From NCBI GenBank assembly GCA_045837725.1, contig JBEWZL010000048.1, forward strand, positions 186,001 to 250,000: DNA of 64,000 nucleotides, read 5' to 3'. This document shows positions 1,513-64,000 of this stretch, piece after piece. The stretch's first letter is position 1. Each line of letters begins with the position of its first letter. The translations under genes were made by a program, and so were the position numbers. The DNA is from Vermamoeba vermiformis. Its lineage: Eukaryota. The notes below the pieces were generated by a model that was not told the origin of the DNA, did no database searches, and worked only from the letters and a program-made list of their open reading frames with translations.

Positions 1513-1742
1513 TTCTTCTGTTCAGAATTTGATTACTGAACAGCTGACAAGCGGGGCTAATAAATATTCCGTGAATGAAATCTCTGTGACTGCTCTTTAC
1601 TTGATCTTTTTCCTAAATCAGGCTTGGAGGATTGATCAATCTACACCTAGCTGTTGGCGAGCAACGAAGCGGCAATCCTGCGTGAGCGAACATTGTACAA
1701 ATCAATTTATTTTTCTATATTACAGGAGGGTATTCGATTGAT

Positions 1743-3376
1743 TTAAGAGAGGCTGAAGTAACTGCTGGTGTTCAGACCATCAATATGGTGATCATCTTGC
1801 GAGTCATTCACAAACACGCCGTCCAAGTCAAATCCAGTCTCAAAGTCCAATTCGTCGTGCGTTGTGTCGTGTTCTGTTTGAGGTTCAGCGGCTGGTGCTG
1901 GTTCAGGTTGCGGCATCACAGGTGTCACATTCACTTGCGGTGGCTGATGATGGCCATTGGTGGGTGTTGCAGTGTAACTCGTGTTGGTTTTGAGTTTGAT
2001 AGACGGATAAGTCGATGGTGCAGCAGGCATGGGATAGTTGTTGTCGTACACTGGCTTGGGCGGATAGTTCGACACAGGCAAGTTGACTGGATTGAACTTG
2101 GTTTCATTCAGCACCGGTGTCGTGTTGGCCATGATATTCGTGTTGCTCACTGGTCCTGACGCGTACACTGGCATCTTGCCGCGACGTGGCTCAGTGGCGA
2201 CAGGTGTGTGACTGACACTCGGCACAGGATGGCTGTTGACAGGTGTCATCTGATGAGGTCGCTTGCCAGCTGTTGCATTGGTAGTGCTGGGCACGGCAGG
2301 CACAGCAGGAACAGTCGGGATGAGCGGTGTAGCACCAGGGGGCAGTTGAGCGTTGGGCTGTGGCAGCAGAAATACACCTGGCGGCAGGATTGGTGGCAGT
2401 GTCTGTTCTGGCGGGGCCATGCGCGTCAATTCTTGCACGAGAATGGAACTGTTAATCTTCTCATCGTTGAGACTCTTAATGTGATGCAGCAAGAAAGTCG
2501 AGTGTTGCTTGACCTGATTGAAATCTATGCCCTGGTGATACAGCTGTCAGTTGGACACGTGTCACAAAGAGGTCTGCACAATTACGTACAAATTTGTTCA
2601 GCGGACCAGTGAGTGACAGACGAGGCTCGACAACAAGTGCGTCCAACATGTTCTGCACGAGCATGCATTTGCTGAAGTCACGTGATTAGTCACTGACACG
2701 CGTCAGATACTTGTAATGGGACTTACTCAAACAAGGCGCGGAAGAGCGGTTGATACTCGGGCACGGGGTCAATCAGCAAGTACCACGCAGCATCAGTGCG
2801 AACATATATCTTCGGCACCGTACCATCTTCTGCGGCACCAAACTCGACACTCCACAACACCAGATCTCCGCTGCGCAGCGACAGATGTGAATCTGGATGT
2901 TGTCGGATAGCTGCCATACGAGCTTCAGGCGTATTGAGTGGCTCGACTATATCATACAGCTCGGGGGTAATGAGTTCTCCGGTCAATACGAGTGGATTAA
3001 TGACCACTGGATAGCGCTGTAGATCTTCGATCGAGGCAACGGGAGTGTTGGGCATGTTTGGCGCGAAGATGTTGAAGCCCACAATATAACGATAGCAATA
3101 GAGCGAGGGGTCCACACCTAGGGGCCAGTCATTGTACTTGGCAGGCACTTGCGCTTCGGGCGTGACCGTTGAGGAATGTGAGGGCAGTTTGGGTGGGATC
3201 ACGCGTGGAGTTTGACGAGGACCAGCCTTCTTAGCACGTGTATTAATGCCTGATTTTTGCGGAATATTCGGCGCTGGTTCAGGGCCTGGTTGACGCAGTT
3301 GTTGGCGCAGCATCTTGATCTCGCGTTGCAGCTTAGAGATCTGATCTTTGACTCCTGCTTGGGCATTGGGGTCCAT
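1743..3376 (-). CDS. RFTS (DNMT1 replication-foci-targeting-like) domain protein with a Pro-rich tail and no methyltransferase domain (3 exons)
   Basis: WSVEFG...KIYVRTDAAWYLLIDPVPEYQPLF...KCMLVQNMLDAL...PRLSL resembles the RFTS consensus (WxIEFG...IRTDxAWYxLxxPxxxYxPxF). Confidence 0.6.
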
Positions 3377-3815
3377 GGCTGTTGTAATTATTTGATATGT
3401 TTTGATATATTCCTAAAAACAAACAATTTTAATATGTGTACAAAGTACTTGTGAGTGGTTTTTAGCCGGTAGATTGAGTGTCGAAGAGACAACAATCGAG
3501 AGAGTTTGAAACTTCGTAAAATAGACTTATTTATATTATAGATATTTTTGAACATTTAATAGTCCATTTAGAAATAAATACAGCCTGTAATAAGTGAATT
3601 TAATTTGGCGGTAAAAATGTTAATCGAGCTAATTCAAGCTTCAATAATTACATATAATATTATATTAACATTTTTTATACATACCAATAATAATGTGTTA
3701 TTTAGCAAATATTTAATTAATTAAGTGTATTTGATCAGCTGGTGAGATTGACACACGAGAGTGAGAGGCTGACAGAGCTGAGAGATATATAATAGAGCAA
3801 AACAACTGTTATTTC

Positions 3816-6800
3816 ATGAACAGCGTGCTCGTGTGTGACTCTTCAGTCGGGTATAATGTTTCAAATTTGAAGTTTACGATAATTTTGACGACGATTTTAT
3901 CAATTTTATTATCAACCTAAAAAATGGCTGTATTGCTCAGACATACCGCAGATTTCAGAAACACCCTTAGACTACTTTACCCACATTTGTTTTTTGTACA
4001 ATTGTCATTGTGCACGCTAGAGTTGAGGAGCCAAATAGTCAGGATACATTGAAGATGGAGAGCGAGAGCGACACATCTAGTGTGTCTGATAGCGGCTCTG
4101 AGAGTTACAATCAAATACCACCACCACCACCGCTACACCTTGAGGACGATAGTACCGTCGATATTGATGACCCTGAAGCAAATCTCCAACAGCAATTGCA
4201 ACTAGCTGCGGACAAAGAGAAATTAACAGCTATATTAAATCATGTATATGATATTGCTAAAATAGAAGATGATTCATGGGTGCTCGAAGATACTCAAGTT
4301 GCGGATTTGACGTGGAACGATATTAAAGAGGGGCGGGTCAAGCCTTCAGTAAACACTGGTCGTCGATGGAACCGCATAAGAACATCTTACGTGAGTGCAT
4401 TATAATATAGCTCGCTAACAGTCTTTATATCAATTTATCTGAATTTTTTCTATTTTTGAAATTGAATTCTACTGACCCAGACCCAATGCAGCCCATTGAA
4501 CACACGAGTACCGTCAAAGTAGTGCTAGAAAAATATAAAACCTCGGCCCGAAGGGTAAGCAATGCCCGACCAATATAAAAAAATTTGCAACTGCCGATCT
4601 ATTTTCAGTTGTATTAAACCATCTTGTATATTCAAGGGACTCAGCGAAGAGCAGCGCAAGAAACGATTAGCCTTATTTGGTGAGAATACAGACATGTCGG
4701 GCACTCTCTACAAGTGGACTAAGCCGCACGGATCCATCAAGCAACAAGTGCACGACAAACTCGAGGCCTATTGGGTGCTCATAGACGGCGAGTGGTTGAA
4801 GAGACCGAGGTACATACTGTCTCCTATTTAGTCGTATATACAGCTCCTGAGTGCTAATATTTTGTTAGCTTGTCGTTGGTACCAGGCGACATTGTGCTGG
4901 TGAGCGAAGGACAAGTCGTGCCTGCAGATCTGCGCATCATTCGAGCGTGGTCGTGTTGGCTCGAGAACGGACATGCCACTTGGACTACTGCGCGCTGGGC
5001 CTCGACTTCTAATGACGGCAACACGAACTGGCTCAACTCGCCGAACATGGGCTATCAAAAGATGTGGGTCAACAGTCGGGGCTATTTGATCGGCGTCGTG
5101 ATTGCTACTGGCGAGACGACTGTCGCCAACACGCAGTATTATTATCACTACCCTGTCAAGGTGTGTAACTTGCTGTCTTCAACTCGTCATCCTAAAATTT
5201 CCTTTTTTAGTACGCAGTGGATCCAGAGGCCAAGATGTTCCTAAAGCTAGCGGGAGGCATGAATATATATATGAGAGATCTCTTGAGCTTGACGAGACTG
5301 CGGGGCTTGCAATATTTGTTCATGAACTTTGACATTTTATTGCACCACAAAAAATCCAATGTCGGTATGTATTAGCAACACTATTAGCACAATTTTACAA
5401 ACTGATTTGTATTACTGCCAGCATCTGTATTCTATAACAATAAGATCTATCAGCCTGAAGAGATTGATGCCGCAGATCTGAGTTTCATTCAATTGCATCG
5501 CGTTGCTTCGTTGGTCAATTCAGCGCATATTCACGGTACGCATCTTATTAAAGGTGTGATTATTCTAATTATTACCAAATTAGGCAATAAAGCCATCGGA
5601 ACTAACGGTTTCGATCGAGTAATCGCACTATTTTTAGAACGTTATGGCTCAGTTTCCAAAGTAAGGCCGAATATTGTAATACTGTATTCAATTGCAATTG
5701 TTAACCCCTTTTAATGAAGTGACGCAAGACGCACGAACGATATTCAGATGCTTCATCGCACGCGTTTGGTGTGTATTTAGAGGAGGGCGAGGACAAGAAT
5801 GAGAACGGCACTTCCAACGAGAACAACAACAGCAATAACAACAACAACAACAATAATAACAACAATAATCTGGTTGCCATAGCACCGTCCATTCGTTTGA
5901 GAAAGAAGAAAGCACCCAACACTGTGAATGTGGAAGGTAAATTCGGAGCACGCATCACCGTGCAAATGGACGATGCGTACACCATCATCAGCGATCAAAC
6001 TGTGCAGTACTGGATCAACAATGGCGTTATCGAAGAGCTCGATAATGGCACTCGTCAGTTCGTGCAAGATATGATCAAAGTGCTCGCTGAGCGCAAGTAC
6101 ATTATGATTGGCTACTCGATCAGATTGACCGAGCTCAGTCGCAATGTGTTTGTGGGATTCATTGCCCTGGACGTCCCTTTCAAGCCCCCAGCAGTGAAGC
6201 AGAGCATTGAACTGATGCGCGACATTGGCTACAAACAGGTCTACTTCTGTCGCTACAACTTGTACTCCATCAGGGCATTCATGGAAGCGCTGTCATTCGA
6301 GTGCGTCAAATACGATCCGTCTGACTCGGAGCACTGGCCACTCATTGGCCCTGGTCGAGCACCCGTGGTGAATGACTGGGATCAATTTGGCATGCCCATG
6401 TGGGATGGGAACAACAACAACAACAACAACGAGGACCAGCCTCCTGACGGTGATCCTCCGCGTCCACCGACCGACGAGAGCAAGAGCGAGGAGGTGAAGA
6501 AGATGTTGGCGAGCAAAGTGGTGCTGTTCGACGGAGATCTCGAATACAACCAGGCCAACAAACTGTTCTCGTCGAGTATTCTGTGCACGACCATCAATCA
6601 GCGCAATTTTCATCACCTCACCACGTCATTCACCACACTCAACACACTGGTAAGTTAGTCCATTAACAAGCACAATGCAGCTCTAATACCTCACTAGCGC
6701 CGACCATTCATCACCATTGGCTGCAATCTCGCTGACAGTCACATCCTGTCCGCATCCGCGTGCAAAATGTTCTTCTCGCGCATGTTGGGCCTGTGCTATT

Positions 6801-8393: not shown

Positions 8394-11300
8394 ATGGATG
8401 AAGAAGAGCTCTTGCGTCAGATGCTGCTACAGAGCATGCAAGCAGCGGGTACAAGTGACAATCAAGAGAGCTCCATCCAGACTGCGAATACGACCACTAA
8501 TACTACTGCTGCGAGTGGTGATGTGATAGAGAGTGGTGCGCGCGAAGAGGGTGAAATCAGCGATGAAGAAGGTGCTGTCACACCTGAAGAAGAGCCACAT
8601 TCAGCTGAGGACCAGCCCAAAGACGCAAATACTAATGAAAATAATACTAACACGCGCGACAATAATTATATATCGATTGATAGTGATGAGGATGATTATT
8701 CGAGGGCTTTAAAAAATTATGAAAAAAAATTAGATCCCGAATCTGACACCAAGGACGATGAACGGCGAGGAGGTAGACGAAGCAGTGCAGATGATTGGTC
8801 ACCTAAAGCTAGACGACAATTTAACGGCCCCAATGATCGGCGCAGAGAGAGAACTCGCAGATCTGACAGGTACGTGGTGGATCCAAACCATTTATTGTTG
8901 TAGTACCTCATACTAACAACAATCTAAATATAGAGGCAGACGTAACTACAGAGATGGGGGCTATTACGACGACAGGCCGCAGAATCCCGCACCAAATCCA
9001 GCCATCAATCCTGCATTTTTGCTGCAATCACTCGTCAATTTCATCGGCAATGCACGACCCCTGCCACCGCTGTCACAACCACCTGGCACTGTGCCACCCA
9101 TGCCCGCCCCGCACCTGCCACCCTACCCACACCCTGCTGAGCCCTATGGTGCTGGTGACATGGAGGTCGATCCACCCAGTGCTAATTATAGCGCGCAGTC
9201 AATGCCGTTCACTGCTCCTATAAATAGCGCGCAATATCCGCCACCATATCCTCCACCAGGGCCTTATTACAACAACTACGAACCGTCGTACAACAATTTT
9301 CACGCGAACACTGTGCCAGCACGCACCGCGATGACACCTGTCACTCAGCCACCTCCACGACCTGTCACTGCTGTCACGTCACCGCAGAAAGCGACTCCAA
9401 CTCAAGCTGTGACAGCACCGAGTGTGACACCTGTCACTAATGAAGTGTCAAACCAGCACGAGGACGAAGATCGATTGGTGATTGATCTCGGAGAATTGGA
9501 CGAGAGTTCGGAGGACAGCTCCGCTTCCGATCGATCAGCCCACCAGGCAGACACGCCAGACTGGATGCTGAACATCTCGCGCATCAAACAACAGCTCGCC
9601 GAGAAAGAGAAGCGCCGCGCTAAAAATAGCACCAAATCTGTCAGTGCTGCAAATAGTACTGCCACAGCGACCACAACAGCACCGAGTGACGACAAGACTG
9701 CAAATGACAAGCCAGCCCTGGTAGACAAAGAACAGCTGCAAACCAAAGCCCTGGCCGAGAAAGAGCAGCGCATTCAACGGCTCAAAGATGAAATTGCGCG
9801 CCGTGAACGCGAACTGCAAAGCAAGAAACAGGCCAGCAAGGACGAGACACGCGCTGAGAATTCAGTGAACGAGAGTGACGGACAAGCAGAGTCACGTGAT
9901 CAGCAGCCAATCAGCAACAAGCAAGACAAACGACCGCGCAGTCAGTCAGATCCGCACCAACTCGATGAACTGCGTGCTGCGAAACGAGCGCGCGTGACCA
10001 GTGATGACAGCACTCGTACTGGCAACACTAATAATAATAACACTAATAATAACACTCATAATAATACTACTAGTAATAACAACACTAGCAGTACTCAGAG
10101 CTCTCAACACAATGCCATACCGACCAACAATAACACCCTCAGCCCCGCACTCAGCACTGCAGTACCAAACACTGCATCTAAAAATAGCTCTCAATCACGT
10201 GTCATGACCATGGAGGATCGAGCACGTGTACTGCGTGAGAAGACAGCGGAAGAACACGCGATAATCTCCGCGCGAGATCAGCGGAACAAATTGAGTGCCG
10301 AACTGACCACCACGCAGCACGATGTACTGCGATCACGTGCTCAATTGAGTACTGCTGAGCGGAACATTCTATTTTTGGAAGAGAAACTCCGCATTGCTCG
10401 TGAAGAGCGCGAGAAATTACTCCAAATTAGGAAAGATCAGGAGAGCAAGTGCCACGTGCTCGAAGAACAGATGCGGGAGATTGATCGAGATATGGAGCGG
10501 AGATTGCACGTGATTGCGGAACATGATCACGTGCTGCAAGTGAATGATTTGCAACTAGAATTGGACCAATCAGAGCACAGCGCTGTCACCGCCAGTCCTG
10601 ACACCACTGTCACGCCACCTTCCAATTTAGGCAATACAGACGTACCTATCATTGCAAAGCCCTCAGCGACGCCACCTGTCAAACCAACATTGCCTAATAA
10701 GGAAATCGAAATCATTGACGTCGATGATGTCCCTACGCCACCAGTTTCCAAATCAAGCAAGTCCCCCGCAGTGCCAGGTGCCACACTCGATGAAACAGCG
10801 CTGCGTCAACAAGCCCTGCACGCGCTCCAATCACCGCACACGTCCAAGGCTGAGCGACGCCGTGCTCGGAGGAAGTTGCGACAGCTCGCTAACAGTGGTG
10901 GCAGTACTGCGACACCTGTCACTGTGACACCTGCACCAGTGGCTGAATCAGGGAGGCCTAGTGACGCCCCATTCATGAACGAGACAGATCAGCACATTGT
11001 CAGCAAAGTGCGTGCCTTGAAAGCAGCGGTGACGAGCGATGCAGTGCTGGTGCACGACTGGCCCAGCGACAGCGCAGAGTGGCACGAGCTTGCCCTGCAC
11101 CGCACTGTCACACTCACTGGACTCGACGATCACGTGATTGTGGATGTCACGGCAGATATTCCGCACATTCCCACGACTGAGACCGAGGGCGCTAACTACA
11201 GTGCCGTGCTGCACTCGCTGGACAGCACCGACGAGACTGATCTGCGCGTGTCTGCCACACAGCTCGCCGTGCCGTACGAGTCACCGCTCAGCGTGTTCAG

Positions 11301-14300
11301 CTCGTACAGACTCACGCCACACTGCTCGCCTCAACAGCGCACTGCAATCACGTGGAGCAACAAGATCAATCCGCACGTAATGTTCTGCAAATATGATCTG
11401 CACGGCACCTGCAATGACGACGAGTGTCACGCACAACACGTGCGCGATGTGCAGCTGAGTGGCGAGGAATTGCTGCGCGATCTTGCAAGCTACATTGAAG
11501 ACCCGAACAAGTCACGTGCTGAGAACGAGAGTGCCATCACTGCGCTGCTGAAACAAGTGCGCGGCACGATACTGAGCGAGCGAGTGGACTCTGTGATCCG
11601 ATTGGTCAATCAACTGCTGCAGGCACGTGATCCAGCACACCGCGGCATTGTGTTCACACCGCGGCACCGAACACTGACGCGCAAGACTGTGCCGCAACAA
11701 GCACCGACGAGGCGTGACAAGCGCGCAGTGAAGAGTGGCACTGTGCCACGCGATGTGCCGCACGAGGACGAGGAGGATGTGCTGGTGGTGGAAGAGCTGC
11801 AGGACGATGAACAGCCCGTGCTGCACTTGTTGGACAGCGAGCACGCACAGCTGATGCACACTGCCGCACACGAGCGCTACTTCCACGCGCACCTCTCCAA
11901 CCACCAAGTCGAGCAGTTGCTGACCGAACAGCCGCACAACATAGCGCTGTGGCTGCAGTACAGTGCCACTCAACTGCACGAGCACGTGCCACACTCGCTC
12001 ACTGCACCGCTGCTCTGGGACGAGCACGGACACTGGTTCGATGCCACAAATCTCGTGCGCGAGCTCAGTCCTGACAGCAGTGCCACCAGCCAGTCCGAGA
12101 TCAGTGTGGATGCTGCACTCCACGTGCTGTCACGTGCACTGGAGCACAATCGGCGCAGTGTGGTGCTGTGGTATTACTATTTGCGGCTGTACATCCCACG
12201 TGCACCATCACGTGAGGAGTTGATCCGCACCATCGACCAGGGCCTGTCATTCACCGCAGAGAACACTGACAACACGAACTGGACGCTGTGGTGCTTGTAA
12301 GTCAATGCCCATATTAGGCAATCACACTGACACGTGTCATCGCAGGTACATTGATGCGCATGTCTCGCTGCAGGACAAGATCAGTGCCACCGAGCGTGCT
12401 GTCACACAGCTGTCACGTGACAAGAGTCCCGAATTAGCTGCACGCACTTCAATCCTCGCTCTGCTGCTCGTGCTGCAGTCCATTCAGCTGCAAATATCTC
12501 TCGGATATCTCCCGCAAGCACGTGACAGATTGCGCAGCTACATCTACCACGTGACTGATGATGGCAAACTGTCACTGCGTCGTTTATTGCAGCCCCGCGA
12601 CTTGGAGCTGGCAGTGCTGTCGTACATGCACGTGCTGCTGTTCGATCACGTGCCCAATCTGACCAATCACGTGCTCAGCGCTGAACTGTTCGTCATCACG
12701 TGGGACAAAGCACGTGACAAGCCAGCACAGTCGCAGCTGACGCGACTGTTCAAAGAAGTGCTGGAATTCCCAGAGCTGCAGTCACGTGATCAGCCTCCCC
12801 TCGCGCTGATGGTCAATCACGTGCTGTACGCATTGCCTAATTTGGACACAGCGGAGCTCGCAGTGCAAGAATATCTCAAAGTATATCCGCAACAGTCCGC
12901 GCTGTGGAGTGTGTATGCCCTGGTCGAGAGTGCGCACCACAAGCACGATACTGTCGCGCTCATTCATGAACACGCCCTGGTGGCACACCCACGTGACTGG
13001 CAGCTGTGGTTTCACCGCACCATGCACGTGATGTCACGTGACGCGCTCGATGCAGTGTTGCAATGCTTGGCCGATGCAGTGATCGGATTGGCCCCCGCAC
13101 CCCTGGTACGCACCGCTGTTTGACACGTGTCACACTAACTTTGCGACAGAATCAGATGAAAGTGACAGCCACTGACAAGCAGAGCATTGCTGTCATTCGC
13201 TCGCTGTTCGTGACAGCACTGCAAATGACACGTGACACGGCGGAACATTTCACAGCATTCACTGGCACACTGAGTGACACCACGCCGCATGATGGCAATG
13301 TCTATTTATGGCTATTGTTCGCGCTGTTCGAAATGATCACTGGCAGTGACGAGCACGTGATGCACGTGATCAACCAGGGCACTGCGCGACTCACTGACCC
13401 GCAGCACCGCAACAAGCTGTGGTTGTTGTAAGTCACTGTTTGACACCTGTCATATGACACAAACACTAATATCTTTGCAGCTATTTTACGTGGCGCAGCA
13501 TGCACGTGCCATCAGCGGAACAATTGTTGACAGCAGTGCAGAGCTTTGTTGCCTGTCAAGTACGCACCGTTCATGAACTGACCACGTGGCATCGTCTCGA
13601 ACTCGCGCGTGATGTGTCCGCGAGTGATGTGCAGCACATGCACGTGCCAGTACACGTGGAGTACAGTGCGGTGAATCACGTGATTGCCACCACATTGCGA
13701 CACGTGTCCTCGCCACAACAGCGCATGCTATTTTTAGAACAGAGCGCGGCCCAGCTGGCGCACAACACGTACCTGACACGTGCCCTGACACGTGCGCAGT
13801 GGCAAAGTGCACTCTACAACCGCGCCAAGGGCTCGCTGCTGCTGGCACTGGTGCGCGATCCTGCGGACTTGGATCTGTGGCTCGAGTACTTATATTTACA
13901 TTTATCTATTATTTACCTATCATTTACATTTATCTATTATTTACGTTTAGCTATATTTTATCTCATTTACATTTATTACAGTAACTTTCGAGTACATTAT
14001 CAACATATATCCCTTCATATTACCGAGCACTACTAACACCTCTCCAGTCTCGCGCACATCGCCATGCTCCAGTCACGTGCCTACGATGCCAGTCACGTGC
14101 TCCTCAGTGCAGTACGCGCCGTGTCCTCAGTGCGGCTAGTTGCCACCGCGCTGGCACTGCTGTCACTCACGCGCACCACTGACCTCGCTGAGCACGTGCT
14201 CAATCTGCTCGCACATCTCCGCGCACGTGGCTACAATGTGAAGCTATTCGAAGACAAGATATTCCGCAAATCTGCTTTTGCCCTGGTAAGTCACTTGCCT

Positions 14301-21968: not shown

Positions 21969-23248
21969 ATGGCAACTCTAAAAATAAAGAGTTCTGGTGC
22001 TAAACAACCGCGTCCTCCTGGTGCAGTACCTTGGGTTGAAAAATAGTAAGTCCAATTAATAATAAGAATTATTATTATCTCGCCAAAGTGGTCGACAACC
22101 TTTAATTAATTGCTGTGAACATTTATAAACGATGTTAAAATCAAATACATTATTAATGGTGACATCTAGTCGACCTAAATCAATGGACGAGGTCGTGCAT
22201 CAAGAAGAGGCAGTCAAAACACTCAAAAAGTCAATGGAGACAGGCAATGTAAGGAATACATAGCGAATATCACTACTAGACACTCACCTCGCACTTCAGC
22301 TGCCCCATCTGCTCTTCTACGGTCCACCAGGCACCGGCAAGACGAGCACCATTCTCGCGCTGTGTCGGGATCTGTTCGGCACACCTGAACTCATCAAACA
22401 GCGCGTGCTCGAGCTCAATGCGTCAGACGAGCGCGGCATTGAAGTCGTGCGCAATAAGGTACCCTTGGATTTCCTTATTTGGTAAAACTAATCACGTGAT
22501 CTCGCAGATCAAAACCTTCGCGCAGGGTCAAGTCAGCCAACAAGTGGTGAATGGCCGTCAATTGCCGCCCTTCAAGCTGATCATTCTCGACGAAGTGGAT
22601 CAAATGACTTCTGACGCACAGAACGCGCTGCGCCGTGTGATTGAAATCTACAGTCACGTGACTAGATTTGCACTGCTCTGCAACTACGTCTCGAAGATCA
22701 TCGATCCAATCACCTCTCGCTGCGCTAAATTTAGATTTCAACCCCTGCCACACGAACCTGTCAAAGCTCGACTCGAACACATTGTGACAGCGGAAAAACT
22801 CATGACAGACCAGTCGAGTGCGCAGATTGATCTATTTTTAGACGCGCTGATTCGCTTGTCCGAGGGTGATTTGCGCAAGGCCATCACGTACCTGCAGAGC
22901 GCGTATCGACTGTACGGCAGCAAGATGACGCTGCAGGCACTGAACGACATTGCAGGCGTGGTGCCTGAAGAGCAGATCCGCACTCTGTTTGCGGCCTGTC
23001 GCTCCAAGGGCTTCAAAGAGGTGCAGCACGAGGTGCAGACCCTGGTAGATGACGGCTACTCCACCGCGCAAGTGCTCAAACAGCTCTCCGATCACGTGAT
23101 TCGAGCGCAGGACATTGACGATGTGCGCAAATCACGTGCGCTGCTGTACTTTGCCGAGTCAGACAAGGCCCTGGTTGATGGCGCGGATGAACTGCTGCAA
23201 CTGCTGCACGTCACCACTAGCACCATGCGCGTGCTGCAACAAGTGTAG
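21969..23248 (+). CDS. RFC4: Replication factor C small subunit (human RFC4 / yeast Rfc2 type)
   Basis: [45 protein letters not shown]. Confidence 0.93.
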
Positions 23249-23978: not shown

Positions 23979-25198
23979 TTAAAAGAATCGTTTGCGAATC
24001 TTGTGCAGCGAATAGGCCACTGACCGCGCAGGCCCAGCAGTGAGCAGTCCTTTGATGGTCTGGATGCGACTCGAGCGCGCCACTCGCTGACTGAGCTGTG
24101 CGTGCAGGGTGTTGCTCGTGCTGCTGCTGTGTGCCGTGTTCTGATGCGCGCTGACACTGACACTGGCCGCGTGACGCAGGGGTGGTGGCACGTGCTCCAG
24201 GAGTGCTGTCACATCACGTGGCACGACGAATTCGTCAGCAGCATTCAACAGCCCCCACTGCTGCAGAATGGGTCTATAAATAGCATCAAATGCGCTGCCG
24301 TCCCCGACCACGCGGGATATCTTGTCGGGACTCTCCGCCCAGCCCATGCGAATATCTCCGCGGTACGACACGCCGCTCAGATGTGCGTAGAACTCGCGAC
24401 ACGTGATCGAATGCCGCAAGCCCTGGTCGATGGACTGCGCGGTGAGGAGCAGGGCAGTGATCGCGACAGCAGCGCGGTGATTGACAGCGAGTGCGTGCTG
24501 CAGTGTGACACTTGGTTCATGAACGGTCAACACGGGCTTGTGCAATCTCCCCGCGAGATAGATGTGTGACCAGTGCTCGAGATCGTCGACCAGGGCAGTG
24601 GTGCTGACCACACCATATTTGTACATGTCTGGTCCCTCGCTGAGAGTCACGTAGGGGTGATACCTAGCAGCGGTCAGTGCGAGGGTTGGACAGTGTGGCT
24701 GTCGTGCACTGAACACAGCGAGACTAGTGTACTGAGCCCTGTAGCACTAGTACTGATATCGCTGCACGAATACGTACCATATACCAGGGCCCCACTGCTG
24801 CACGCGTTGCATGGCACGTGAGGGTTGTGTGACACGTGACTGCGACTTGACGGCACTGTAGCGCCAGTAACTCGCGTAGTGCTGAGGATTGCGCGTCATA
24901 TTGTGCGCGTGCCAATCATTGAGGTGTTGGTCGTCAATCACCAGCACCACATCTATTTGTTTCTCTTTGGATGCTGACGAACAAAATTAGAATTATTACT
25001 CAGTGTCAATTATTGTTAATAATAAAATTTAATTTGGCCATCAACTTAACGCAAAGTCTTACATAAAGTATTTGCAGCGGTATTTTTACTCTCCGAAGGT
25101 TTTGCAAATAAACTGGATCCGTAGCAGAATGCGTACTGCAGTCCAGTGTTGGGCAGTACTTTCATCAACTTGCTGACTTTGTGCAGAACTGGCTCCAT
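23979..25198 (-). CDS. TAM41: Mitochondrial phosphatidate cytidylyltransferase Tam41/Mmp37
   Basis: YAFCYGS, YKYGVVST, IYLAGRLHKPV, SYRGDIRM, QTIKGLLTAG. Confidence 0.92.
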
Positions 25199-25288
25199 GT
25201 AATGGTTAATATTCACGTCTTGTGTTCATGACTCGTTGGGAGTGAATAATCATGGCGATTACAGGTTGAGTTTATTGCGGATAATTGC

Positions 25289-27285: not shown

Positions 27286-27383
27286 CAGCGCATTACAATA
27301 TCAAAATGTTCAGTATGCGATGTTTCAGTTGTGGTGTTGTGGTTGACAGATGTACAACAAGTATTTCCGCGAACAGTCGAGGC

Positions 27384-28439: not shown

Positions 28440-28515
28440 GCACTGCAGTGGACTTGCCTTATTTGTACATAGAGCCGTTTGTAAATTTGTACAGTTTTGT
28501 TTTAAATCTTTGCAC

Positions 28516-37022: not shown

Positions 37023-37135
37023 GGACACCCCGTCCATGGTGGACACCCTGTCCATGGACGGACACCCTGACCATGGACGGACACCCCAACCACGGACGGA
37101 CACCCTGACCATGGATGGACACCTTGCTCACCATG
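37023..37135. repeat. Tandem array of about 6 x 18-19-bp units, consensus GGACACCCTGACCATGGAC
   Basis: Units start at 37023, 37041, 37060, 37079, 37098 and 37117. Confidence 0.9.
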
Positions 37136-42128: not shown

Positions 42129-42245
42129 GGCGCTATAGTATTGTACAGGCAGTAAATAGTGATGCATCGACACGTGCGTATGACGCAGTGTTGTTATTAT
42201 TGGTATTATGTACAAGCAGTGATTACAAGCAGTGATTAGGCGCCC

Positions 42246-45200
42246 TTAATAGCGATGACCACCACGACCACCGCGGTTGTAATCATTGCGATCGGAGTGA
42301 CCTCCGCGCTGATATCCTCCGCGCCCTCGCTGATTGTTGTAGCCCGCGTTGTTGTTGTTGTATTGCTGCTGGTTGTACTGGCCTGGCTGATTGTATTGTT
42401 GACCCTGATTGTACTGTTGGCCCTGATTGTAGTGCTGACCCTGTTGCGCGTACTGGCTGTAGTTGTTGTAGCCCTGATTGCCGTACTGTTGTTGATAGCC
42501 CTGTTGATTGTGCTGCTGATTGTAGCCCCCGCGTCCGCCACGATATCCGCCGCGTCCTCCGCGCTGATCGCTGCCCTGGTAGTGGTCGCGTCTGTCCTCG
42601 TGATAGTTGTCGCGCCGTTCACGTCCGTAGCTGTCACGTGACTCGTCGCCGTAGTCGCGGCGCTGATGTTGTTCGGGGTGGTAGTGGCCGCGCTGGTAGT
42701 CGTCGTAGGGTCGATAGCGCTCGTTGTGCTGCTGATGGCCGCCACGTGATTGGTAGCCGCCACGTGACTGATAGCCTCCGCGGCCCTGGTAGTTGTCGCG
42801 GTCGTTGCGCAGATGATAGTTGAGTGTGCGATCAGCGCCACCTCCGCGACCAAACGTGCGCTCACGTCGAGCATTGCGGCGCGAGAGATCGTAGCTGGTG
42901 AGCTCTGGCTCGGGCATGCGCACACTGTCCAACAGCCCACCAGGGATCACCATGCGATGCAGTGGGGCAGTACCTTCCGGCACGGGCAGCGCTTGACCTG
43001 TGCGGAACTCCTCCGAGACAGCAGGCATGATGTACTGTGCGCACCACACAAAGCCGTCCAGTCCTAATTTGGTCATGATTGTCAGTTGGAAGGGGCTGGG
43101 TGCGAGGTGTCCGAACAGTTTTCCCGCCCCCGCGAGTGAGGTGAGGTCTGCAGCGCTGGTGATCTTGCGCCACTCAATGCTGCTCAGTGCACGCGCCACG
43201 GTATCAGCGCGCACACGATGGCGCTCGTCGAGTTCACTGCGCACTGCAGAGAGCTGCGAGCTGATGGCACTGTCGAGCTCACTGCTGCTCAGTGCGGGCT
43301 GTGCGTCACTGGCCTCGACGATGGGCACGGACTGCACGGCATCACTTGCCTTATTAGGCTCGTACTTGGTGAGGCCCAGTCCGTACAGCTCTTCAAAGAG
43401 GTGCGCTCCATCGTGATCACGTGACACGAAGATGACTTCAGCACCAATCGAGTTGCGCTTCTTCTCATCGGGCGTGAGACTGCGCTCCACGGGCTCAATG
43501 GCAGCCAACAGGCGCTGCTCGTCGATGAATGGCAGCAGTGCGACACCTTGCCACTCGTGCTTCTTGCCGTTGAGATCGATGACAAAGTTCTCAGGATAGA
43601 AGTCGAGGATGGGACTCTCAGGGTCAGTCATCAGTCGGCGATAGGGCTCGGGCACACCTTTGGCACTGGCAGCTGGCAACACACCCATGAGCTGCGCGAA
43701 GGGCGTGAAGGGAATGTCGAGCTCTGGCTGCGAGTAGAGGTCAATGTCGCGAATGGTGTGGTCGTGCAGGTACGAGGGCAGCACGGGCGGGGGCAGCTGA
43801 TTGTAGCGACCACCGTGCACGACAGCAGCGACGTCAATCTCGCTCACTCCGCCATCTGCCACCAGCTCAGCCACGAAGGGTGCGTAGTGGTACTTGTAGA
43901 ACCAGCGCCACGAGGGACAGCCCTGGTAGTAGTAGCGCAGCACCCAGCACAGGCCTTCAATGTAGCTCTGACGGATCTCTTTCATGAACTGCTTGTCGTC
44001 CATCGACACGTGGAACTTGTTCTCGTAATATCGTTCGCGCCAGCCCTCTTCACCGAGGCGCACAGGATCGCGCTCATCGTCCGAGTCCACTTCTTCGGTC
44101 TCGTCGCGCGGTCTCTTCACGCCACGATTGGGACTCACCTCCGCACCACTCTCGCTGGGGACTGCTGGCACAGGGGGCTGATTGACAGGTGTCACTGGAG
44201 TGACAGGTGTCGCACTCTGACCCTGGCTCGTGGCGTACAAATTGAGTGCGTTATCAATCGCGGCTTTCAACATTTTGGCGGCATTTTTGTTGCTGTCCAC
44301 TGAACTGCTCACGACTGGTGGCGCGGTGACAGGTGCCACTGGTGGTGCGGACTGCGCGCCGAGTGGTGGCAACACGCGTCCGAGAACATCAGCAAAGTTA
44401 CCGGCAGGGAATGCGACGGGCTGCGAGAGCTGCGAAGTGTTGTAGCGCGGCAGTGGCACATTGGCCTCGATCGGTCCGAGCACCTCTTGACTGTTGCTCA
44501 TCGACAGCTTGCGTCGCTTGGCGTTCTGTTTGCGTTGTTTCTCGCGCTGACGGCGCTCAGCCAGAATTTGATTCTCGCGCGGGGCCAGATCTTCGAGCAA
44601 TCTTTGCACGCGTTCGAGGTGCACATCTCCGTCGTGCGTGAGATATCCGCCGAGACTGGGCAAGATGCCACGATAAATCTCGGTGAGGAGATCAATGGCG
44701 CCCTCGCGGATCTCGAGGGTGGGCAAGTGCGGCAGAAAGTCATTGCCGACAAAGAAGCACAAGAACACGTAGTCGTCAATCACGCGCTCAAAGTCGTAGG
44801 GGAAGGGCAGATCTATCTTGAGATCGTTGGCCAGGTACTCGCGCAGCACATTGACGCGCAAGAACTGATAGGGCACTTGTTTCTCATCGGGGGTCTCGCC
44901 CTCCGCCGTGCTCTTCTTCGGATCCAGCACTGTCGTGCACTCAGCGGCGATGTGTCCGGGCTGGCCACAGCGGTGACAGTTGTTCGAGTGCTTCATAGTC
45001 ACCACCTCGCGCAGAATGTCAAAGTGCGGCTCGTGCGTGGCGAGTGCTAACATGATGAGATCTGCATCCAGTCCGTACAGCACGTGGTGGGTGTTCGGAT
45101 CGTAGCCAGGCTGATGTCGCTGATGTCGAATGTAGTCCATAATCTTGTGCTCACCCTCGCCAGGTACATTGGCATCGCTCAGAATCACGGCTATCTTCTG

Positions 45201-50467: not shown

Positions 50468-52080
50468 TGAGCGCACCCTCGACTCACTTACACATATTTG
50501 AGCTCGAGAAGCCCGTGCGAGTAGTAACAGATGTGAGGCAAATTGATTTGACGAAACTCGAGGAGAGTGGGAAATTACTCGGTAATGATTTAATTTATTT
50601 TTCTTAAATATTTCAGGCAGCTAAATAAAATCGGTGTATGAATTTAAAATAATAAATTCAGCATAATAATAATCAGAAAATCTAATATTTTAATGCTAAA
50701 TTTTTTGCAGGTACGTTCACTACATCCGTCAGTGTGCTGCTCAATGAAGCCAACCAGTCCATAGAATTCACTGTTATTATTAACATGCCCAAGACTAGCG
50801 ATAAGAGGTGAAGTTGATGCTCTACACACCTGTGTGTCTAATCAGCTTAACACAGTGCCAGCACGACTGCCCCACAGGTGCCCGAAGACAAAGAGAGCAC
50901 CACCACTGCCACCGCGACCAGTACGAGCAACAGCACGCAAAAAGACGCCGAGTCTGCGCCAGTGACTGAACACACGCAGCACGGCTATTACTTTGCCGGG
51001 GACTTGAAGACACTGGAGCGCACACTGCGCACATCGACATTTGACACCGTACTGTCATTTTTCAAGCTCTTGCAGGTACGTGGTTGACACGTGTCATTCA
51101 CCAGCCCCTAATCTCCCTCAGCGCTCCCTGAGTGCCGATCACGTGACACACCCGCTGTTCGTGATTGACGAGTCCCCGACACGTCGCGCGCAGTGGCTGT
51201 TGAGCGACGAGCAGAGTGTCACGGGCTACTTGCCCCTCACGCACTCTACGGCCTTCCACTCGCTCAAGGCCTATCCCATGCTGCACTACAAGGCACGTGC
51301 ATTGACCAGTCCCTCCCCCTCACTAACACTCACCTGCAGAGCGAGGAGCTGATCTTCGACATTGTGGCCAACATTGATCGCAATCGTCTGTTCCCCAAGT
51401 ACCCGGAACTCGATGCTGTGTTCACGGACACGCTCAAGCGCATTGCCACCAACTTTGACAAGCAGAAGTGGAGCTATGTCGTGGTGCCCAAAGACAAGCG
51501 GTGAGTGTCTGCACAGCACGCTGATTGACACCTGTCAACTGACCGCGGAACTGACAGCAAATTGAACGAAGAAGAGATCGCCAAGATGATCGTGGAGCAG
51601 CGCAAGTACCTGGAACTGACCATCGTGTCCAACTTGATCGTGCAGCGTGACGAGCGCAGTGTCAAGATTGACATGCTCACCATCAGCGCGCAGGATCAGT
51701 CGCAGATTGTGCAGATTGTCAAGCAGTTCATCCTCGCCACATTCCCCAAAGCAGGTTGTTCCGTACCTGAACTGGACAAGTGTCGGCGCAAGTTGACGCG
51801 TCTGATCGATGACATGCGCGCACTGCAAGACATCTTCCAGGGCTCAGAGCACGTGCTGCTCTACAACCCCTTCCTCACCGAGAGCAGTGCCGTGGTGCAT
51901 CACGGAGCACGTGTCTTGGCACCGCTCGTGCTCGGCGCAGGTCCGTTGACAGCCCCCTCACCGACCCTCTCACCGGCCCATCGTCGCGCTGAGCCCCTCA
52001 CTGCTGACCCACCGCTCGATCTCACTGTCCTCGCACGTGCTGTTGTAAATATTTTGAAGCGGAAGTACATTGCGAGTTAA
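50468..52080 (+). CDS. Hypothetical protein (about 6 exons, one with a GC donor)
   Basis: ORFs 50878, 51041, 51193 and 51562-52080 join through short introns; family not recognised. Confidence 0.6.
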
Positions 52081-53268: not shown

Positions 53269-55450
53269 ATGGAGTCAGAGGACAAGTTCAGCGCAATATT
53301 GCTGCCAGCCAACGATCAGCCTCTGTTAGTGTATCTAAATAAGCGTGATTATATTACCGAGTACGTAGTCTGATTAATTCTTTAACTAAAAATGATCTGT
53401 TCCTTGACAGGGTACTTAAACTGATCGAATCCACTTCTGAGCAGCTCGATGTCGAGTTTTTAAAGCAAAAATATTATGGACCATTACTGTACCATATTAA
53501 GAGCGAATCCAACGGCAGCTTGTCGCCCAACAGCCGAGCTTCGCAATTAGCGGGGTTTGAAGTAATTGTAGCGGTTCAGCGATCCAGGACAATCGTATCC
53601 AACTGTTTAATATTAATTCTATAGCTGCGAGGACACGCTCTTCTGGTCCATATCGAAAAGGAGGCAGATCAGACTCGACTCTTGAATTTGACACTTGAAC
53701 AGTTTGAAGACCTCAGCTCCAAAGCGACTGACATTCGGTAAGAGGACATTACTGGCAATATATAGATCATTCTAACGGCAATAGTTTCAACTTTATGCGC
53801 AATTACTGGCGCAGTCTGAAGCAGACCCTCAAACAGAGCGCAGATCAACTTCCCGCGCAGTTCCCCGAATTCAAAGACAGCAAACAGTGGCACGGCAAGA
53901 CCCCCGCAACACTCGTCAACGAGTACGTGCAAGGCAACAAACAGCTGCAAGTGGAGTACGAGAAAGTGTCCAGCAATGCCGCGGTACAACTCGCTGCCTT
54001 CGATCGCTAGTGCCTCTATATATGCTGATGTCCTATTCGCAGGGTCCACACAAGATGCGCATCAAAGTGCTGCACGGCGATGAAGAGCTCACCTTCAAGC
54101 CCGACGAGTTCCACGCCAAGCTGCAAGATGCGCGACAGAATGCCGCACTGCAGTTCGTCAAGTGGCTGGCACACGCGCAGATGACTGGCGAACAGCTCGT
54201 GCTCGGCGAGGGCGAGCAACACGTGCCGCACGAGGACGAGGACGCGTCAGATCACGAGTCCCACGCCCCCATCGAGGAGTGTCACACGGCCCCAGTGTTC
54301 GCCTACTTTGACTTTGTGCGGCAGATGGCACAGCAGTTCAAACTGGACCACGAGGCCGAGGTGTGGTCACAGCCCTCACCCGTGACTGCGTGCGACAAGG
54401 TGGTGCTGGAGGGTCGAGTGATTGAAGACATGCTCGGTGATTTGAGTCTCATGAAGATCACGCTGGAGCCTGGTCACGTGCTCGTGGAAGGGGATGTCAA
54501 GGCCTATCGCGGTAAGTGCGCCCATTCCCTTGCTGCTGCGTGCTGATCGAGTGCAGTGCACTACATGGGTGTGTTGCAAGACGAGACGGTGTTTGACTCG
54601 ACCTTTGAGCGCGACAAGTCCGAGTGGCTCAAAGTTGACGACGGCATTGATCTGATGGCCATTGGACTGCGCTCAATGCGTGTTGGCGAGAAGGTGAGAA
54701 TAAGACCTATGTTACCACTGTGCTCACCGCTGAACTAGGCACTCCTCTGGGGCACACCAGACCGCTGTTTCAAAGAGATGGGCAGTCCACCGCGCATACC
54801 TCCCAATGCGCACTGTCTGTTCTACCTGCACCTGTTGGAGGTCAAGTACGACAAGCCACTCGCCTCCGTGCCCGCGACATTGCGCGAAGATGAACAGCTC
54901 AGTCCTGCAGAGCGTGTGCTGCGTGCGAGTGCGTCCAAGCAAGAGGGCAATGCACTGTACAGTCAGACACAGCTCGCAGCTGCACTCAGCTACTACAATC
55001 AGGGCATCAAGTGGTTGCAGCTCTCCAAAGCTCAGCTCGCGGAACTCGACAGCGCCACACGCACACAGTGCCTCAGCTTGGCAGCGACACTGCACCTGAA
55101 TGCAGCAGCAGTGTACATGGCGCTGCACGAGTGGGACAAAGCAGCGCGACATTGCAGTGCGGTGAGTGGTGTCGTGCAGTGTGTGTGACGTGAACTGACA
55201 GCTGTCACAGTGTACAGAGAAAGAGCCCAGCAACGTCAAGGCCTGGATACGCAGTGCACGCATTCACATCCATCGCAACGAATATGACCGCGCTGAGAGT
55301 GCGCTGAGGCGTGCTGACGAGCTCATGCAGCGACAGAGCGGTGCGGATGTGCTCAAGGAACAGTGGCGCGAAGTGAACAGCGAGCTCCAGACACGGCGTG
55401 CAGCATATGCAGAGCGCGAGAAGAAGATGTACCGCCACATGTTTCAATAG
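53269..55450 (+). CDS. FKBP-type PPIase/TPR co-chaperone with an N-terminal extension containing a dsRBD-like segment
   Basis: WHGKTPATLVNEY...KLQDARQNAALQ; VHYMGVLQDETVFDS, GLRSMRVGEK, PPRIPPNA; KQEGNALY, LHLNAAA, NVKAWIR, EKKMYRHMF. Confidence 0.8.
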
Positions 55451-59425: not shown

Positions 59426-59535
59426 TTAGTATTCGTAAGGATGTATAAATAGTAATGCTATCATAATCAGCCCCAGTAACTGCTACATTCACAACTATTT
59501 ATCGAGGTATTACACAAGTCTGTACAGAGCGAGCA

Positions 59536-61000: not shown

Positions 61001-61237
61001 GATCCACACCAGTTAATAATACTTGTGTATGGTGTCTTATATATCTGGTTAATAATGAGCTGTGTTGCTCACTCTTTGAAGAGGCATTAACTCACTGGCC
61101 ACGTGATGTCAACAAGCACGTGACAATTCAGCCCTGCGTGGCTACTGTAGTATTCTTGCCCTAGTTAACATTCATATCAATCTTAATTCAGGATTGCGTG
61201 GCGATCATAGAGTGCTGAGTATAGCCTGTGCACTGTA

Positions 61238-64000
61238 ATGAAGCGCGCTCTATCCCCCACGGACGCGAATCCAGCTCCACCAGCCAAGCGTTTGAAGCTG
61301 AGCACGAACAGCGATGACAATAGCAGCACAGACAATAATAACACTAGTCCTAATAACACCAGTGCTTCCAGTGGCAGATCTGACACCTCACCATTCTTCA
61401 AAGGCAGCTCACAGCCGTCTCAGTCACCATTCAAGCCCAAATCCTTCAACCTATCATATAGCAGCACTCCCGTTAAAAAATTGAGCAATATTACTCTACA
61501 AACAAGCTCTGGCCAGGTCAAATCCGAACCTGAAAAAGTTGCAAATGACACAAAAAATGTTTCAGTAATTAATGGCGATACTAAGAAAATAGGCACAAAT
61601 AATGGTACAAGTAATCACGACATTGACGAACAAGTAAGCAGATTTGTAGTTTTTCTGAGAATCTTTTATGCTTACACATGTTAGGTCAAATTGATTATGC
61701 AAGACATTACTCCTGAAATGTTAGAAGACGATTTTCAAATCCCACCAGGTAATATTAGCGCATACCGGTAAATATCTTGCTGATCGCGATCGACGAACTA
61801 GATCCCGCTCCTCAACCGCCTGCAGCGAAGAAACAAGCAGTAGTAGAAGTGAAGCCATCGAGTGAGAGCAACAAAATGAAGCAGTCCAAGCTCGATTTCT
61901 CCAAAGCCAAGCCCAAGCCAGTGTCGCCAGTCACTGAAACCAAATCCGTCTCTGTCTCAAAATCACCCAAAGCTGCGCCAGTAGTACACGAAGAAGACGA
62001 GGACTACGAGGGCGAGGAAGAAGGCGAGCCTGAGGATGACAAACCGCTCTCTAAGAGTGGCAACAAAATGCTGGACAAGTTTCACGACATGTCCGTCAAA
62101 GAGCGACGGAGAATGGTAAGCCACTATTGTACCATTGGTCTATCGATCGTAACACGTGCACCAGCAAAAACAAGAGTCGTGGAAGCAGAAGAACAAGCAC
62201 AAGTACGCGTTCTTGGAGCAGATCATGGACGAGAACAAGAACCCCAAGGGCAGTCCCAACTATGACCCGCGCACGCTGTACATCCCCGCACAGGCCTATG
62301 CCAACATGACGCCCTTCGAGAAGCAGTACTGGGACATCAAGCGCAATCACTTCGACACGGTGATCTTCTTCAAGAAGGGCATGTTCTACGAACTGTTCGA
62401 GACTGACGCCGAGATTGGTCACCGCGAGCTCGATCTCAAGATGACTGATCGCGTCAACATGCGCATGGTCGGACTGCCTGCAAAGCACTTCACGCATTGG
62501 GCTGCAAAGTTGATTGCCCTCGGCTACAAAGTGGCTAAAGTCGAGCAGTTAGAGACACCACTCGCGATGGCTAAGCGTCAAGGTGTCAAAGGAGCACGTG
62601 ACGTGAAAGATGTCGTGTTGAAGCGCGAACTGACACTCATCATGACACCTGCCACGATAGTCGATGAGAGTCTGCTCTCCACTCCTCAGGCGACGTACTT
62701 GCTCGCGCTCAAGGTCAGTAATTGACACCTGTCACGCGCGATTAACATGTTGACACCTGTCAGGAGGACATTGAGCGCATTCACTACGGCATTTGTCTCG
62801 TGGACACGGCCACTGGTGAGTTCAAATTGGGGCACTTCGAGGTGAGTGTTTGACACTTGGCATTGACACGTGTCACTCACGCCATGTGTTAGGATGACAA
62901 AGCACGCACGCAGTTCCAGACAATGTTGTTTCAAACTCGTCCGCGCGAAGTGGTGTTCGAGAAGGGTGCGCTGAGTGCTGTGACCATCAAACTGTTGCGC
63001 CAACAGCTCAGTCACGTGATCTTCACGCCACTCAATGCCAAGCAGTGTTGGGATGCACAGACCACACTGGACAAGTTGACATTTGAGTCGTACTTCTACC
63101 AGGGCACTGTCACTGACTACGACAAGGGTATGCGATTGCCGTTCATGAATAGATCTAATTGCCTTATTTAGTAAAAGAGAATTGGCCGACAGTGCTCACA
63201 CAGTTCAAAGACAACACGCACGTGATTACCGCACTTGGCACGTGCATCGCTTATTTGAATGAGGCACGTGACCTATTATAAGCGCATATTCAATGCTAAC
63301 CTATTTTTAGCTCAAAATCGATCAACAGCTCGTGTCGCTGAAGAATTTCGGTGAATATAATGTGCTGGGCGAGGCGGAACATTTAATTCTAGACGGCAAG
63401 AGCTTGTTCAATTTGGAGATTGTCGGTACGTATCACCCGCGCGTTATTTCCTAAAAAGGTAATTGATCTGTCGCAGAGAACAATCACGACTTGACAGCTG
63501 AAGGCACACTGCTGCACGTGATCGATGATTGCCGCACCGCTTTTGGTAAGACGTCGCCATCACCGATACACGATTAATGTCCAAATTAGGCAAGCGCTTG
63601 TTGAAGCAGTGGCTGTGTCATCCACTCAAAGACATCAACGCCATCAACGATCGCTTGAATGCTGTCGCGGATCTGATCGCAGCGGATGATCTCGCTGGTA
63701 TGTGGCACATAACGGTGCTGGCATTGAGCTCACCTTCCTAATTTAGAAAATATGCGGAAAAATTTGAAGAAGTTGCCCGATCTCCAGCGCACAATCTCGC
63801 GCATTCACGCAGGTCACGTGACACTGGCTGAGTTTGTGACAGTGCTGGACGCATTTGAGCACATTCACGTACGTACTTGCCTAATTAGGAAAGACGAGTG
63901 CTGATCTAATTTTAGAACTTCATGACGGAGATTCAAAGTCACGTTGAAGAATTCAGTTCTGTCACGCTGAAGCATATTACCAAATTAGGAGAAGGCATGC
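61238..64000 (+). CDS. MSH6: DNA mismatch repair protein MSH6 (runs off the window)
   Basis: [64 protein letters not shown]. Confidence 0.93.

Follow-up and report, generated by a model that had tools for sequence, protein, structure and literature searches.

The stretch analysed here, hereafter the window, comprises 64 kb of contig JBEWZL010000048.1 of the amoeba Vermamoeba vermiformis (positions 186,001 to 250,000) and is gene-dense nuclear DNA with 49% GC, in which GC-rich exons are separated by short, AT-rich spacers. Pfam matches identify common housekeeping genes, namely those for XRN2, an SNF2 helicase, MON1, an RFC subunit, NOP9, a ZFC3H1-like protein with zf-C3H1 and HAT domains, an FAD-binding oxidoreductase, Tam41, AFG1, Rtr1 and a MutS-domain protein. 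For the XRN2 domain, the closest relatives that carry a name belong to amoebozoans (Thecamoeba, Phalansterium, Acanthamoeba, Balamuthia) and chytrids, at 45-62% identity, and a search against Rfam gave no match in the window. Running through these genes is a small set of short, mostly palindromic words: CACGTG, the 12-mer TGACANNTGTCA (of the type TGACA-NN-TGTCA), CCW6GG, CTAW4TAG and the non-palindromic GCCCTGGT.

A scan of the plus strand finds CACGTG 202 times, a mean spacing of one per 317 bp, together with 31 copies of TGACANNTGTCA, 30 of CCW6GG, 21 of CTAW4TAG, and 16 of GCCCTGGT plus 10 of its reverse complement. Markov models of orders 0 to 4 (100 simulations per order) fall well short of these counts. 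For CACGTG they predict 14.8, 28.8, 37.1 and 85.8 copies at orders 0, 1, 2 and 3, and the sole order to approach the observed number is the fourth (173.6), into which the pentamers are already built. For the other words the expectation stays low at every order, at 0.03-0.45 for the 12-mer, 1.5-4.0 for CCW6GG, 0.4-2.1 for CTAW4TAG and 1.1-5.2 for GCCCTGGT in both orientations.

Codon-aware tests were made on 80 open reading frame (ORF) segments (42.8 kb), picked by a codon-usage score trained on Pfam-confirmed ORFs, against three nulls: a within-segment synonymous shuffle keeping protein and codon usage, a codon permutation, and a shuffle preserving the protein, the codon family and every dinucleotide count. 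CACGTG occurs 164 times in these segments against 60.8, 25.2 and 70.5 expected under the three nulls in that order; the corresponding figures are 19 against 0.7, 0.0 and 1.7 for the 12-mer, 22 against 2.1, 1.6 and 2.1 for CCW6GG, 15 against 0.7, 0.2 and 0.3 for CTAW4TAG, 13 against 2.3, 1.1 and 0.8 for GCCCTGGT, and 11 against 3.3, 1.4 and 1.4 for ACCAGGGC. The longer words thus stand 5- to 50-fold above the codon-aware nulls. A preliminary description of this DNA had claimed that five words recur far above chance, and had proposed to check this with a low-order Markov model and a shuffle preserving amino acids and codon usage; the enrichment persists under both, each word exceeding every null run. 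Since Markov and codon-aware nulls alike leave an excess, composition as the sole cause is excluded. The coding DNA does carry a marked dinucleotide signature (observed/expected ratio, O/E, of 0.63-0.67 for GG/CC, 1.38-1.46 for TG/CA, 1.25 for GC and about 1.0, or 0.98, for CpG), which is more extreme in word-rich genes, and further hexamers also lie above the synonymous-shuffle null (CACTGC, CTGTCA, GTGACA, CGCGCA, CAATCA). Several other 6-bp palindromes are strongly depleted relative to the order-1 expectation: AACGTT (2 vs 16.6), CTTAAG (1 vs 10.3), CGGCCG (1 vs 8.9), GCCGGC (2 vs 11.4) and ATGCAT (9 vs 36.2).

The excess is confined to exact or nearly exact copies. The 12-mer is found with zero, one and two mismatches 31, 16 and 49 times, against 0.1, 4.7 and 43.3 expected under an order-2 null (310-, 3.4- and 1.1-fold). 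Under the same null CACGTG itself is 5.4-fold enriched (202 vs 37), and its variants with one mismatch (398 vs 412) and two mismatches reach 0.97- and 0.90-fold. By a steady-state estimate, creation followed by neutral decay predicts about as many one-off copies as exact ones; too few are seen, which indicates that the exact words are maintained, and because the words themselves raise the one-off expectation somewhat, the direction of this deficit is firm and its size uncertain. Some near-cognates even fall below the synonymous null (AACGTG 6 vs 25.6, GACGTG 23 vs 43.1, CATGTG 14 vs 23.9), a depletion built in part into that null, since the words enlarge its codon pool.

As the preliminary description had it, the words lie in different reading frames and on both strands. 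CACGTG occupies frames 0, 1 and 2 of the ORF segments 83, 60 and 21 times, so that the proposed check for confinement to one frame does not overturn the claim. GCCCTGGT appears 13 times on the sense strand of these segments and its reverse complement 11 times, and the asymmetric flanks of the E-box have no preferred orientation (CACGTGAC-type, 44 vs 39); the CC-centred form of the 12-mer is found 13 times in sense and 5 times in antisense, a non-significant skew that codon constraints confound. Three frames, strand symmetry and the copies in introns described below place the signal in the DNA duplex, and not in the protein or in one RNA strand. The 202 CACGTG sites have 196 distinct 14-nt contexts, none of them lies in a repeated 20-mer, and conservation around the words ends within about 14 nt. 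An origin from a dispersed repeat, a miniature inverted-repeat transposable element or an in-frame mobile element is rejected on these contexts.

What kind of sequence do these words resemble? Symmetric flanks extend the cores, to RTCACGTGAY, to TT[G/T]CC-W6-GG[C/A]AA, to [G/T]CTA-W4-TAG[A/C] and to (A)T-TGACA-[C/G][C/G]-TGTCA-A, and the flank tables sharpen the likeness to sites of dimeric transcription factors: RTCACGTGAY to those of basic helix-loop-helix (bHLH) proteins, (A)TTGACA-SS-TGTCAA (TGACASSTGTCA) to MEIS/TALE, TTKCC-W6-GGMAA to SRF/Mcm1 and GCTA-W4-TAGC to MEF2. The non-palindromic class, written with its flanks, is TGCCCTGGTCGA. A match to bHLH, TALE, SRF-type and MEF2-type sites had been proposed before; it holds for the cores and flanks, taking the usual consensus sequences of the E-box, the CArG box (SRF) and the MEF2 site. 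For the remaining class the correspondence is documented, as the commonest 12-mer, TGACAGGTGTCA/TGACACCTGTCA with 18 copies, has in TGACAGGTGTCA the consensus listed for human MEIS3 from high-throughput SELEX (HT-SELEX; PMC5449588). A scan of all gapped palindromes singles out only these families, besides AT-rich simple words and the weaker TTCA-N0/1-TGAA. The latter family is moderately enriched, with 13 copies of TTCA-N1-TGAA against 1.7 expected and 10 of TTCATGAA against 1.7. No bHLH, TALE or MADS gene turned up among the 30 window ORFs scanned against Pfam.

The words bend both codon and amino-acid usage, replacing amino acids at tolerant positions. His-Val dipeptides number 92 against 36.6 expected from composition (Val-His, 25), and 83 of the 92 are encoded by CAC-GTG, although CAC accounts for 79% of the His codons and GTG for 58% of the Val codons; CACGTG also takes in 60 of the 186 CGT codons and 62% of the ACGT tetramers. 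The peptides that the preliminary description had named as traces of the words are present: VTPV 6 times, VTGV 3, HVT 18, SRD 12, AKNS 3 and LPNL 3. The effect is seen most directly in an FAD_binding_4 enzyme exon on the minus strand (25750-26724), which carries 15 CACGTG, 11 of them read as His-Val. When this exon is aligned to PDB entry 6v42, six of the seven His-Val in the aligned stretch correspond to variable residues (GN, DI, KA, GS, DF and others), and one (residues 51-52) falls at a two-residue gap. An origin of the dipeptides by insertion is, for this one enzyme, mostly rejected, as they mostly substitute for residues of the structure. A NOP9-like exon on the plus strand holds two TGACAGGTGTCA 24 nt apart (41902-41937), read as ..VTGVKEESVTGVKEE.. 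in the protein. Of the earlier proposal of a genome-wide DNA code laid over the protein code, the part that stands is the overlay at DNA level, borne out by strand symmetry, the use of all frames, the intron copies and the distortion of codon and amino-acid usage.

The introns repeat the picture in non-coding DNA. Contigs of run X5 match the window at about 98-99% identity and skip 14 usable GT..AG (or CT..AC) stretches, 8 of 47-71 nt and 6 of 89-231 nt, which makes the short spliceosomal introns real; this support rests on X5, whose RNA nature is a guess, though its contigs lack the introns. Words are present in 12 of 34 short introns, five of which are among the 14 with spliced-contig support. 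Intron copies number 10 for CACGTG and 8 for the 12-mer, where an order-1 null for introns gives 0.96 and 0.0. The 12-mer is tenfold denser in introns than in coding segments (3.35 vs 0.34 per kb), and CACGTG reaches 4.19 per kb in introns against 3.76 in coding segments, where 155 of its 202 copies lie, with 10 in short introns. Some introns of 45-50 nt consist of splice signals and two words with little else. The interior of a 49-nt GT..AG intron at 12297-12345 (plus strand), supported by a spliced contig, is nearly all CCATATTAGG and TGACACGTGTCA; other RNA-supported examples are a 53-nt intron with TGACACCTGTCA (13428-13480, plus), a 49-nt intron with TTTCCTTATTTGGTAA and ATCACGTGAT (22457-22505, plus) and a 47-nt intron with TCACGTGA and TGACACTTGTCA (26713-26759, minus). 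Several short introns (for example 41497-41543, 51501-51557 and 55162-55210) end in CTGACAG, so that a TGACAG half-site overlaps the 3' splice site and a branch-point-like CTGAC lies 3 nt from the AG. The raw RNA reads of runs X21-X23 match the window with 103-132 reads per run at 95-99% identity and contain almost no joints. At 10906-10931 and 26278-26295 these reads continue past or join through CCTGTCAC-type repeats absent from the window, which suggests a length or sequence variant in the strain of X21-X23.

The words are not spread evenly over the genes. Three domains, together 19.7% of the window, contain 124 of the 202 CACGTG (62%). The first (9893-14229, plus strand) covers the 3' two-thirds of the ZFC3H1-like gene, with its zf-C3H1 domain and HAT repeats, and within 4.3 kb holds 47 CACGTG, 3 TGACANNTGTCA, 5 CCW6GG, 2 CTAW4TAG and 4 GCCCTGGT in either orientation. 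The second (24189-29769, both strands) spans the Tam41-like gene, the FAD-binding oxidoreductase, an unnamed plus-strand gene and the AFG1-like ATPase, with 51 CACGTG, 5 12-mers and 5 CCW6GG. The third (40072-42766) comprises the NOP9-like gene on the plus strand together with the 3' tail of XRN2, which converges on it from the minus strand, and has 26 CACGTG, 5 12-mers and 5 CCW6GG. The idea that gene bodies at large are saturated with the words is therefore right for certain domains and fails as a general rule, given that 9 of 27 genes, by approximate borders, have at most one CACGTG.

At equal GC, segments carry anywhere between 0 and 16 CACGTG per kb, and the peak density is one per 65 bp. 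The word types cluster together: in 2-kb bins the Spearman correlation between CACGTG and the other four words is 0.72 (0.71 in bins with GC of at least 0.48), and the variance/mean ratio is 8. Density correlates only weakly with GC at third codon positions (rho 0.28, P = 0.05), and the CpG O/E of coding DNA is 0.95 where words are scarce and 1.02 where they abound. CACGTG rises from 2.0 per kb in the first gene quintile, counted from the 5' end, to 5-6 per kb in the last two, a trend driven by a few genes, with gene borders that are approximate. An Asn-rich run of AAC/AAT codons (5820-5870) lies in a P-type-ATPase-like gene that is nearly free of words. Elsewhere, an ORF at 2726-3412 (minus strand) matches the DNMT1-RFD domain (PF12047) at 26.6 bits, weakly but over threshold, and no methyltransferase domain was seen in the exon adjoining it (1746-2546).

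Two kinds of DNA lack the vocabulary, both as the preliminary description had reported. AT-rich non-coding DNA (<40% GC) has a single CACGTG in 7.5 kb, which is the chance level, and a non-coding island at 35650-38380, which contains inverted repeats nested in one another and an array of 19-nt tandem units (37022-37135), has none of the five words. The island also stands apart in signature from the DNA all around it, with a CpG O/E of 0.34 and GG/CC of 1.2-1.3 against 0.98 and 0.63-0.67 in host coding DNA; it probably represents mobile DNA or a recent acquisition, and may be methylated. It carries two pieces, GGTTCAATTCCTGC, that resemble the T-arm of a tRNA. Serving as an internal negative control, the word-free island shows that the host vocabulary is not a property of all DNA in the nucleus.

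Does the vocabulary extend beyond the window? Metagenomes scanned for two 12-mers 5-35 nt apart gave at least 117 loci, of which 117 were screened for word density and 21 were read. Among the loci listed, only L053 shares the full vocabulary, an unlinked metagenome contig of 1.9 kb with two 12-mers in an intron, CACGTG 6 times against 1.1 expected, and one copy each of CCW6GG, CTAW4TAG and ACCAGGGC. Its two 12-mers, through which it was retrieved, are not counted as evidence; the shared words mean that the phenomenon is not private to the window. The other listed loci are unrelated, being tandem arrays, contigs of bacterial GC or a repeat family with ATTGACACGTGTCAAT clusters. Seven of them, from an unrelated metagenome organism (L025, L052, L059, L071, L095, L108 and L115), carry ATTGACACGTGTCAAT arrays with GGGGCATGGGTC-like spacers, and L023 has a tandem array of TGATTGACAGCTGTCAATCA. 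In a blastn comparison of the 117 listed loci with the window there were just three matches of about 30 nt, at chance level, and of 47 pattern matches to the word-rich HAT-repeat exon in metagenomes none was confirmed as a relative. No comparable eukaryotic word vocabulary was found in open-access full text and bioRxiv, sources that may miss the genome paper of this organism.

The closest known parallel is bacterial. In cyanobacteria the highly iterated palindrome HIP1 (GCGATCGC) occurs about once per kb or more densely in coding DNA whatever the frame, and its cause is contested between selection and a by-product of repair (PMC4390886). Like HIP1, the window words are short palindromes that are dense, coding and independent of frame, and they display two marks of a HIP1 kind of word, an excess over low-order Markov expectation and a presence in several coding frames beyond what codon usage yields. 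Unlike HIP1, they belong to a eukaryote with introns, comprise five co-clustering words of regionally varying density, and resemble dimer sites of transcription factors, not methyltransferase sites. Other bacterial words, the uptake sequences (USS and DUS), Chi and the KOPS type, are likewise over-represented through genes in several frames, partly at a cost to the protein, and for uptake sequences the accepted cause is molecular drive. These words are mostly oriented or skewed with replication, whereas those of the window have no strand bias, and we know of no uptake or RecBCD-like process in eukaryotes. A third precedent is the Dcm/Vsr very-short-patch repair that enriches CCWGG in E. coli. 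It shares with the window an enriched cognate word accompanied by some depleted near-cognates, and GCCCTGGT contains CCTGG; it is, however, a prokaryotic enzyme pair acting on one word where the window has several, and nothing like it is known to us for words of the E-box, MEIS or MADS type.

Two further systems resemble the window in part. The periodic A/T clusters (PATCs) of C. elegans, runs of An/Tn with a 10-bp period in the introns of germline genes that are thought to guard against silencing, are also a non-coding DNA signal extending through eukaryotic gene bodies, but the window words are exact palindromes, exonic as well as intronic, and without periodicity. The Rickettsia palindromic elements and similar mobile insertions in frame also place palindromic DNA in coding genes and add peptides to proteins; these elements are mobile, 100-150 bp long and conserved over the full length of their copies, whereas conservation in the window extends over at most about 14 nt and most sites, judged from the one enzyme, are substitutions, not insertions.

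What, then, could hold these words at such density? We tentatively favour, at somewhat less than an even chance, the possibility that they are protein-recognition words acting at DNA level and kept up by an active process in transcribed DNA. GC-rich, transcribed DNA carries a few short palindromic words at very high copy, which match high-affinity sites for dimeric proteins in length, symmetry and flanks and are concentrated in multi-kb domains that cross gene borders. The signal is strong enough to fix synonymous sites, to fill the interiors of introns and to replace tolerant amino acids. The putative readers would be sequence-specific dimeric proteins of the bHLH, MEIS/TALE and MADS families, and selection in a very large population would keep dense arrays of their sites in particular genic domains, possibly to mark or organise the chromatin of genes and separate host genes from AT-rich spacers and mobile DNA. 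Several observations weigh against this interpretation. Transcription-factor sites are normally excluded from coding DNA, and the exonic location of the words is the opposite of that. Canonical bHLH (E-box or CLEAR-type TCACGTGA), MEIS/TGIF TALE, SRF/Mcm1 and MEF2/Rlm1 sites, so similar to the window words in core and flanks, lie in promoters and enhancers in few copies per module, the location expected of functional factor sites, whereas the words are mostly coding, reach 15 per kb in exons and introns, and are at chance level in AT-rich spacers. Pair distances up to 400 bp, a small sample, show no period near 10 bp or in the range of roughly 150-200 bp; their residues modulo 3 (135/98/92) reflect a codon-phase excess only, and the idea of a chromatin organiser, which the preliminary description had raised, gains nothing from spacing. 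Many ordinary genes of the window get by nearly without words at a normal CpG content, so that a general role in genic identity is not one required for gene function. Strain differences show only a weak, non-significant avoidance of the words in an underpowered comparison: of the 40 listed, out of 172, 1 falls inside a word where 3.7 would be expected (P = 0.11). Finally, co-clustering across genes and on both strands is equally expected from regionally varying repair or conversion.

The last point leads to the alternative that we take most seriously, though we regard it as unlikely on the whole: a non-adaptive drive, in which regionally varying repair or gene conversion favours the words in heteroduplex or damaged DNA and leaves them as a by-product wherever protein constraint allows. 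Such a process might be tied to a modified base at the CpG of CACGTG, a link of the sort proposed for HIP1. The observed pattern suits it in being regional, blind to strand and indifferent to gene borders, and in affecting synonymous sites, introns and tolerant residues together, in the manner of GC-biased gene conversion. The near-cognate depletion against the synonymous null, the recent-looking island without words, which suits a time-dependent process, and the DNMT1-RFD-domain ORF in the window are in keeping with it, as are the bacterial precedents of HIP1, uptake sequences and Vsr/CCWGG. The depletion is, however, partly built into the null, and the AT-rich spacers stay free of words within word-rich domains. 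No eukaryotic mechanism is known that would convert toward five different words, and in theory sites that open up chromatin to meiotic breaks should disappear and not accumulate. We favour selection for dense binding over drive because the words are protein-site-like, steeply exact and drawn from several families at once.

The remaining explanations account for less. Ordinary cis-regulation would place enhancer or promoter elements of nearby genes inside neighbouring gene bodies, for want of room in the short, AT-rich spacers, and the canonical sites with proper flanks agree with this. We consider it improbable, as 47 CACGTG within 4.3 kb, locally one per 65 bp, are far denser than any regulatory module, the third domain lies at convergent 3' ends with no promoter to serve, and the AT-rich DNA on the promoter side is at chance level. 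Still less probable is a function in RNA, through pairing between transcripts, RNA structure or a splicing or export factor that reads self-complementary words. It would fit words confined to transcribed DNA and dense in introns, any two palindrome copies in one RNA could in principle pair, and the CC-centred 12-mer leans to the sense strand; that lean is the non-significant, codon-confounded one given above, the non-palindromic word and the asymmetric E-box flanks have no preference between sense and antisense, and the AT-rich words of CArG and MEF2 type would make poor RNA helices. We give the least credence of all to a mutational sink, in which bound or protected words mutate less, or to plain composition. 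The genome signature, poor in GG/CC and rich in TG/CA, is indeed strong, and the words are built from its favoured dinucleotides, but Markov nulls of orders 1 to 3 and the dinucleotide-preserving null leave a 2- to 300-fold excess. As for the sink, which the preliminary description had offered as one possibility, enrichment should equal the fold protection, and the roughly 300-fold lower exit rate thus needed at the 12-mer seems implausible.

It is possible, if doubtful, that the window exposes a counterpart of the bacterial iterated words in a free-living amoebozoan: a vocabulary of several words of the ancient bHLH, MEIS, SRF and MEF2 site types, running through the exons and introns of whole chromosomal domains, kept in place by selection or by a conversion drive specific to the motifs, and rewriting proteins in the process (His-Val, Ser-Arg-Asp, Val-Thr-Pro-Val). 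In such a genome gene finders, codon-usage models, estimates of the ratio of nonsynonymous to synonymous substitution (dN/dS) and motif-based promoter scans would be misled. Bacterial iterated words have revealed uptake bias, RecBCD control and by-products of repair, and both readings of the present words are open to direct tests in a culturable amoeba. The vocabulary may be a mark of self or genic DNA that is wanting in mobile DNA, the CpG-depleted island being an example. If proteins do bind the words, four of the oldest families of eukaryotic transcription factors would gain a second job away from promoters; if they are driven, eukaryotes would carry an undescribed motif-specific bias of conversion or repair. 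Either process, if true, would constitute a new layer of genome organisation.

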